A stretch of 343 nt of DNA from Escherichia coli (GTDB lineage: Bacteria; Pseudomonadota; Gammaproteobacteria; Enterobacterales; Enterobacteriaceae): assembly GCF_003334785.1 (NCBI RefSeq), contig NZ_QOWV01000089.1; one strand, given 5' to 3'. The notes beneath the pieces are model-generated. The model was not told where the DNA came from. It saw nothing but the letters and a program-made list of their open reading frames with translations, and ran no database searches. This document shows, piece by piece, positions 1 through 343 of the stretch (position 1 is the stretch's first letter; each line of letters opens with the position of its first letter). The position numbers and the translations under genes were made by a program.

Positions 1-120
1 CATGGCCCAGCCCACTGGTTTTCTTGCGAACAGGTCGAGAACAACGGCGAGGTACGCCCAGCGCTTACCCGTCCAGATATAGGTCACATCACCGCACCAC
101 ACCTGATTTGGTTCCGTTAC
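1..120 (-). other. Start of the integrase catalytic core (rve/DDE domain) of OrfB, including the first catalytic Asp codon at 88-90 (minus-strand GAT within WCGDVTY)
   Basis: The motif W-x-G-D-[IV]-T-Y followed by YLAVV[IL]D is the conserved N-terminal part of the retroviral-integrase-like DDE core in IS3-family transposases. The second Asp and the Glu of the triad would be encoded beyond position 1 and are not visible. Confidence 0.7.
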
Positions 121-342
121 GGCGAACTGTCGCTCAAGATGATTCGGGATAGCAACGTGCTCATGACCGCCACGCTTATACCGGTGAGTCGGCTGCTGGC
201 AACTGACCAGCCCCAGCTCTTTCATGAGTCTGCCAGCAAGCCAGTGCCCCATCTGGTAGCCTCTCCGGGTTGCCATTGTGGCGATGCTTCTTGCTCCGGC
301 AGAGCCGTGGCTGATGCCATGCAGTTCAAGTACCTGGCTGCG
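1..342 (-). CDS. IS3-family transposase OrfB (integrase/DDE catalytic subunit), internal fragment; partial at both ends, with neither start nor stop codon in the window
   Basis: Reverse-complement translation in the frame ending at position 1 gives 114 codons with no stop. The product carries the IS3-family OrfB hallmarks: the motif RLMKELGL followed by ...[36 protein letters not shown], which parallels the E. coli IS3 InsF segment [36 protein letters not shown] as I recall it. No database search was run; the call rests on recalled family sequences. Confidence 0.9.
193..342 (-). other. HTH-like region of OrfB that precedes the integrase core (...[23 protein letters not shown]...)
   Basis: Its position immediately N-terminal to the DDE core and the pattern aromatic/Gly - basic - hydrophobic - RLMxELGL match the HTH-like segment seen in IS3-family OrfB proteins. 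Boundaries are approximate and inferred from family architecture, not from a domain search. Confidence 0.5.
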
Positions 343-343
343 T

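Follow-up and report, generated by a model that had tools for sequence, protein, structure and literature searches.

The stretch of 343 nucleotides analysed here (referred to as the window, which always means the whole stretch) raises the question of which insertion sequence it belongs to, from which copy of that element it derives, and whether that copy could still produce a transposase. A preliminary description had placed the window inside the transposase gene of an IS3-family element resembling IS600, and had left aside the integrity of the element and its possible interruption of a host gene. Based on the present data, the window is a piece of orfB from an IS3-family element of the IS911/ISEc52 lineage, very probably from a dead copy located beside the fec operon of Escherichia coli. 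The names IS911 and ISEc52 are used here as they are assigned by PGAP and by the curators of the K-12 genome.

The window lies entirely within an IS3-family orfB

Six-frame translation revealed a single frame that is open across the full window, namely the minus-strand frame from position 342 to position 1, which comprises 114 codons without a stop. Stops occur in each of the remaining five frames, and the mechanically called open reading frames amount to 26, 42 and 35 amino acids and no more. The two frames on the plus strand (26 and 42 amino acids) were considered and dismissed as chance occurrences, being antisense to the well-supported orfB with nothing to back them. The peptide encoded by the open frame matched the NCBIfam model NF033516 ('IS3 family transposase') with an E-value of 1.4e-32 and 113 bits over model positions 137-251 of 369. 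That this score lies below the whole-protein cutoff of 160 is solely due to the length of the peptide, which is 114 amino acids. Furthermore, the feature beneath the match was an IS3-family transposase gene or pseudogene in every matching annotated genome. The window contains neither a start or stop codon nor an end of the element, and is itself free of lesions. The match to NF033516, the domains HTH_21 and rve and the 114-codon open frame confirm, far beyond chance, that the window is wholly internal to an IS3-family orfB on the minus strand, precisely as the preliminary description had claimed. The features of the window are the following, with coordinates in window positions.

1-342, minus strand: internal fragment of orfB (-1 frame) of an IS3-family element of the IS911/ISEc52 lineage, with an open frame and a match to NF033516.
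Whole window: element positions 500-842 of the 1251-bp copy, and virtual OrfAB residues 144-257, on the basis of the exact-match locus of strain E2865 (L002).
202-336, minus strand: Pfam domain HTH_21 ('HTH-like domain'), peptide residues 3-47, E=1.4e-5.
1-117, minus strand: first ~40 residues of the rve (RNase-H-like, DDE) core, peptide residues 76-114, E=8e-11, model positions 2-42 of 102.
88-90, minus strand: GAT codon for the predicted first Asp of the DD(35)E triad, equivalent to D227 in the intact ISEc52 OrfAB and D228 in the fec copy.
77-78, minus strand: putative group II intron target (E.c.I4-type), unoccupied, ...GTGACCTATA|TCTGGACGG.
245, T on the plus strand: base private to the allele beside fec, changing Arg to His in YQMG[R/H]WLAG.
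112-337: putative recombination (gene-conversion) patch, in which the K-12 allele is IS911-type.

The full-length OrfAB of the intact ISEc52 copy used for comparison (L008) reaches 381 bits with NF033516 (cutoff 160), aligned over model positions 1-368 of 369, and its conceptual translation contains the domains HTH_Tnp_1, HTH_21, rve and rve_3. In the OrfAB of this intact relative, HTH_21 covers residues 142-189, which places it after the N-terminal part for DNA binding and multimerisation and before the catalytic core, and the complete rve domain covers residues 218-316 (E=3e-31). The DD(35)E triad characteristic of the IS3 family is present in its rve domain as D227, D287 (in HSDQG) and E323 (in SPMERFF), with 35 residues separating the last two, and the window holds the equivalent of the first of these residues. 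A catalytic role for the Asp encoded at positions 88-90 is predicted from the motif that is conserved between IS3 transposases and retroviral integrases. The published map of IS911 places the HTH, the leucine zipper and the M region within OrfAB[1-149], ahead of the DDE domain (PMC2909936); the window therefore starts at the end of the multimerisation part, spans HTH_21 and enters the catalytic core. A sequence search of the PDB returned no solved relative, in agreement with the statement that OrfAB has resisted structural analysis (PMC2909936). An Rfam scan of the window found no RNA family, the best match being sX6 at chance level (11.7 bits versus a gathering score of 40, E=0.59).

The exact sequence is found at a chromosomal locus beside the fec operon

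At some level of identity, the window is matched in 4082 of the 5426 complete E. coli genomes, and about 1,400-1476 records reach 99% or more. None of 72,556 plasmids carries a 100% match, the best plasmid match being 99.4%. Six records with an exact match were opened (ATCC 11775, E2865, Nissle 1917, NCTC9038, M16807 and 2014C-3057), and some of these genomes contain 7-12 related copies. The match falls in one and the same fixed copy in each of the six; this copy lies ~0.5 kb past a small hypothetical gene (the K-12 yjhV region) that comes after fecABCDE. In ATCC 11775, a tRNA-Leu gene lies ~4 kb beyond the fec-adjacent copy. The fec copy is the ortholog of the K-12 'IS911B/insO' copy; the K-12 record notes that insO lies within the 'KpLE2 phage-like element', and its curators named it 'IS911B regulator fragment'. 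A query consisting of the fec-side flank (450 nt) and the adjoining insertion sequence was at least 80% covered in 2115 of the 5426 complete genomes, which shows that the insertion is old and widespread. In addition, a site table of seven copies showed that the T at position 245 is private to the copies at the fec locus and absent from the other reference copies, which supports the assignment of the window to this locus. Judged from these sequence matches, the exact window sequence most probably derives from the copy that is fixed on the downstream side of fecABCDE/yjhV, within the leuX-associated (KpLE2-type) island. This assignment predicts that the plus strand reads GCCTTGATCGCCTGGAACATCAC, the HSDQG region with one nucleotide deleted, and that this sequence ends ~86 nt before window position 1; the element end TGTTGTGGTCAAC… should be found near -408, with yjhV and fecE beyond it. 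On the other side, it predicts either the start of IS30 at ~165-168 nt beyond position 343 or the slippery site, read as CTTTTTT on the plus strand, at ~170-176 nt beyond it.

An exact 150-nt core of the window (positions 121-270, present in ATCC 11775, L001) had no match in the species-representative genome collection. The E. coli representative in that collection does not carry this allele, which is therefore known here from a subset of E. coli only. Any statement on the host range of the allele accordingly refers to E. coli, the species whose chromosomes the annotated collections covered. The exact allele is a marker of the border that the leuX (KpLE2-type) island has on the fec side, and this border is old, IS-rich and recombining.

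Comparison of the locus in the type strain ATCC 11775 (L001) with that in the bovine strain E2865 (L002; 3700-7400) showed that ~3.7 kb around the remnant is 100% identical, apart from IS30. This level of identity is above what is usual for unrelated E. coli backbones and suggests a recent horizontal spread of this segment of the fec island. It was also observed that a gene for a protein with an AbiJ-NTD4 domain, putatively involved in abortive infection or defence (L001 7712-8536, L002 6492-7316, L009 6712-7536), lies together with a hypothetical gene of 573 nt directly beyond the left end of the remnant in several genomes, and that these genes are absent from the K-12 locus.

Anatomy of the fec-adjacent copy

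The element of E2865 (L002) measures 1251 bp and occupies positions 4592-5842 on the minus strand. Its left end reads TGAAGTGGTTTACTGAATTTGGCC… and its right end …GGCCAGTTTTAGTTGACCACAACA, with TG…CA termini and end tips TGAAGTGG… and …CCACAACA. The intact ISEc52 copy (L008) is 1249 bp long and has the same termini. In both copies, orfA starts at element position 73 in frame 0; in E2865 it encodes 101 amino acids (MKKRNFSAEFKRESAQ…NSSR), and across both copies its product is 100-101 amino acids long. An A-AAA-AAG (AAAAAAG) heptamer is present at element positions 324-330 of both copies, with orfB in the -1 frame. The two copies thus display the features of the IS3 family, which are TG…CA ends, a length of ~1.2-1.5 kb and two overlapping open reading frames with a slippery site. 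The orfA gene, the slippery site and both ends, which the preliminary description had proposed to seek in extended sequence, are therefore all present at the exact-match loci.

Two peculiarities of the copy were considered as possible damage and rejected as such. The right-end tip TGTTGTGG (TGTT…) differs from the TGAAGTGG of IS911, but intact plasmid-borne ISEc52 has the same tip. Likewise, an extra ACA codon after the slippery site recurs in the pO157 copy, whose gene is intact with a programmed frameshift according to PGAP. A further observation concerns the left end, in front of which L002 5843-5850 (by extrapolation, window positions ~843-850) contains a second 8-nt inverted-repeat tip (CTC TGAAGTGG|TGAAGTGGTTTAC…). 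The K-12 allele is without this duplicated tip, and has an IS911-type left inverted repeat (TGAAGTGGCACAC) and a different flank. IS911 has a preference for targets that resemble its inverted repeats, and the duplicated tip could be the scar of an insertion beside such a sequence.

The fec-adjacent copy is a fossil

The orfB gene of the fec copy carries a 1-nt deletion at element position 928 (CACAGC to CA-GGC), 86 nt beyond window position 1. This deletion shifts the frame one codon ahead of the second catalytic Asp, so that the virtual OrfAB ends after 310 amino acids without HSDQG or the catalytic Glu. It was found in all six exact-match loci and also in the alleles of K-12 and strain 35, and must therefore be older than the divergence of these alleles. 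PGAP flags the gene as 'frameshifted' in six of the six exact-match loci, none of which contains an uninterrupted transposase frame. In four of the six genomes the element is additionally split by an IS30 insertion at element positions 332-335 (L002 5508-5511), which is 2-5 nt past the slippery heptamer and ~165 nt beyond window position 343. This fraction refers to the opened loci, because a query spanning the insertion is 85% covered by other IS911 copies, which precludes a wider count. K-12 carries the same IS30, together with a loss of 121 bp, a 327-bp scrap of IS600, and a different left end and flank.

The 3-bp direct repeats, which the preliminary description had also proposed to seek, are absent from the fec copy, the flanks being TGG (left) and GAC (right). 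The missing target-site duplication is consistent with a later rearrangement. The lineage does make 3-bp duplications, as is evident from L005, where a sister copy interrupts a fimbrial usher gene and has GGG on both sides. The fec copy itself occupies an intergenic position in the island, beside fecE/yjhV, and no host gene is visibly interrupted. We conclude that the fec copy is dead because of the frameshift in orfB, usually IS30 in addition, and the lack of direct repeats. No transposase can be made from this copy, and the window is coding sequence without function, part of a fossil insertion sequence. This is relevant for annotation, as the copy is a pseudogene that should not be counted as an active transposase.

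In an intact member of the lineage, -1 programmed frameshifting at A-AAA-AAG would fuse orfA and orfB to give the OrfAB transposase, with an N-terminal HTH, a leucine zipper, the M multimerisation region and a C-terminal DDE core. After synapsis of the ends, one strand would be cleaved and transferred to give a figure-eight, then a circle and finally an integrated element (copy-out-paste-in), usually leaving 3-bp direct repeats, and OrfA would modulate transposition. As far as these steps go beyond the published model cited below, they are established knowledge on IS911. By analogy with that model, OrfAB would bind the terminal inverted repeats with their TG…CA ends, and its dimers would synapse both ends (PMC2909936). 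The fec copy, by contrast, would persist through its linkage to the fec operon and the island.

Mosaicism and a putative intron target

The differences between the fec copy and intact ISEc52 are distributed unevenly, with ~40 differing sites (~10%) at element positions 69-476 and 5 at ~477-1251. The 5' third of the fec copy is IS911-like and the remainder is ISEc52-like, which makes this copy a mosaic. The K-12 allele and the window allele, which occupy the same locus, differ at 28 sites in 1687 bp. As many as 24 of these fall within window positions 112-337, with ~4 sites elsewhere in the shared 1.7 kb, and at all 24 the K-12 patch carries the IS911-type base. In strain 35 (L004) the patch is shorter and covers window positions 112-118 only. 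As read from these alleles, the patch pattern indicates probable gene conversion between copies of the IS911 family, and the mosaic would be a small example of this process in a fossil element. Since 21 of the 24 differences from IS911 are synonymous, the lineages must have diverged under coding constraint before the copy died.

A breakpoint at window positions 77/78 is present in a sister IS911-like orfB of some E. coli genomes, where one set of matches (H73-76) covers positions 78-343 and another (H84-85) covers positions 1-77. In strain DETEC-E223 (L010 738-3000), the interrupting sequence is a group II intron with an ltrA gene, a 5' GTGTG and a domain V/VI recognised by the Rfam model RF00029. 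The exons flanking this intron (258-737 and 3002-3719) were observed to belong to different IS3-family elements, of which the upstream one is IS911-like. The downstream exon, which encodes …TWRGFVYVAFIIDVF…HHSDKGSQY and is joined at the equivalent codon after D-x-T-Y, is presumably IS629-like. This mixture of exons suggests either a recombination between intron copies residing in different insertion sequences, or homing followed by rearrangement. By analogy with known homing sites, the target at window positions 77/78 may be of the E.c.I4 type, and the intron in DETEC-E223 is a candidate E.c.I4. For the E.c.I4 intron, homing to defined sites within transposase genes has been reported for IS629, IS911, ISEc16 and ISEc31 (PMC3522654).

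Alternative interpretations of origin and function

Plasmids of Escherichia, Klebsiella, Leclercia, Enterobacter, Serratia, Salmonella and Citrobacter commonly carry copies of ISEc52 that are intact and 99.4% identical to the window, and the 343 bases of the window are themselves without a lesion. The window might therefore be thought to come from an intact and active copy of the ISEc52/IS911 type, either on a plasmid or elsewhere on the chromosome. Nonetheless, the 72,556 plasmids yielded no 100% match, the T at position 245 was seen solely in fec-locus copies, and every one of the six opened exact-match records turned out to contain the frameshifted fec copy. An intact source is thus unlikely, and the dead copy beside fecABCDE is preferred. 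The general claim of the preliminary description, that the window represents mobile DNA in Enterobacteriaceae, is supported.

A different matter is whether the fec remnant has been kept for a function, with orfA or a truncated, catalytically dead OrfAB serving as a trans-dominant inhibitor of incoming IS911/ISEc52 elements. In uninterrupted copies orfA is intact, and the virtual OrfAB of 310 amino acids would keep the HTH, leucine zipper and M regions. Moreover, the literature treats OrfA as a transposition regulator and reports binding of the element ends by truncated OrfAB[1-149] (PMC2909936), insO bears the name 'regulator fragment' in K-12, and the junction is present in 2115 of the 5426 genomes. 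However, the insertion of IS30 in four of the six genomes truncates orfA and parts it from orfB, and this weakens a retained regulatory role because it concerns most of the copies that were opened. K-12 has suffered the further loss of 121 bp, and the sole private change of the allele in the window alters an amino acid, as relaxed constraint would lead one to expect. In addition, the wide presence of the remnant is sufficiently explained if it hitch-hiked with the fec operon. We therefore regard selection for such a function as extremely improbable. The broader speculation that the remnant acts as a resident trans-dominant repressor, or else that the patches and the intron site make it a 'landing pad' for recombination at fec/KpLE2, also seems very unlikely, and the findings require neither of these ideas.

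Comparison with known elements

The preliminary description had tentatively named the element as IS600-like. IS600 is likewise an IS3-family element of E. coli and Shigella with a two-ORF frameshift architecture and the DDE motifs (NQVW-D-TY), it is often found in the same island, and scraps or whole copies of it adjoin the present locus in K-12, strain 35 and 2014C-3057. The motifs of the family are common to the window peptide and IS600 OrfB, which match with an E-value of 6e-18. However, the peptide is only 35% identical to IS600 over 108 amino acids, and there is no significant similarity at the DNA level. Two references were used for this comparison, namely the OrfB fragment in strain 35 (L004) and an intact programmed-frameshift copy that PGAP labels IS600 (L013, the WP_085948184.1 locus), and blastn searches of the window and of the whole element against both gave no significant match. 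By comparison, the identities to IS911/ISEc52 amount to 98-100% at the amino acid level and 93-99.4% at the nucleotide level. The assignment of the element to IS600, or to an IS600-like isoform, is thereby refuted, with next to no probability left to it, and the correct name for annotation is IS911/ISEc52-type. The preliminary description had stated beforehand that an outcome of this kind would overturn the IS600 label alone.

According to the convention of ISfinder, isoforms share roughly more than 95% of their amino acids or more than 90% of their nucleotides. The window has such isoform-level near-identity to named copies of both elements (99.4% of nucleotides for ISEc52, and 93.0% of nucleotides with 98.2% of amino acids for both a PGAP-labelled IS911 and the curated K-12 IS911B). 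IS911 is the model element of the IS3 family. The IS911 of Shigella dysenteriae and E. coli and the K-12 IS911B (insO, b4623) resemble the element studied here in having orfA, the A-AAA-AAG site, orfB in the -1 frame, TGAAGTGG ends and a length of ~1250 bp. K-12 IS911B furthermore shares the chromosomal junction beside yjhV/fecE and the 1-nt deletion. IS911 differs from the window by 24 nucleotides, all of which are located within positions 112-337, with 21 in synonymous and 3 in amino-acid-changing codons. The closest known relative is ISEc52, as labelled by PGAP for example on a plasmid of E. coli MDR_56 (NZ_CP019905.1, WP_096998908.1), with 341 of the 343 nucleotides identical. ISEc52 and the fec copy have in common the right-end tip and the His in IPNHLERQ, whereas the intact copy has an Arg at window position 245, where the window encodes His, and its HSDQG codons are undeleted.

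The discovery value of the window is thus very small and its practical value lies in annotation. Indeed, there is no novel system here, as the preliminary description had rightly stated: the class of the element, its lineage and its locus are all already known, and the K-12 ortholog has been curated as IS911B/insO.
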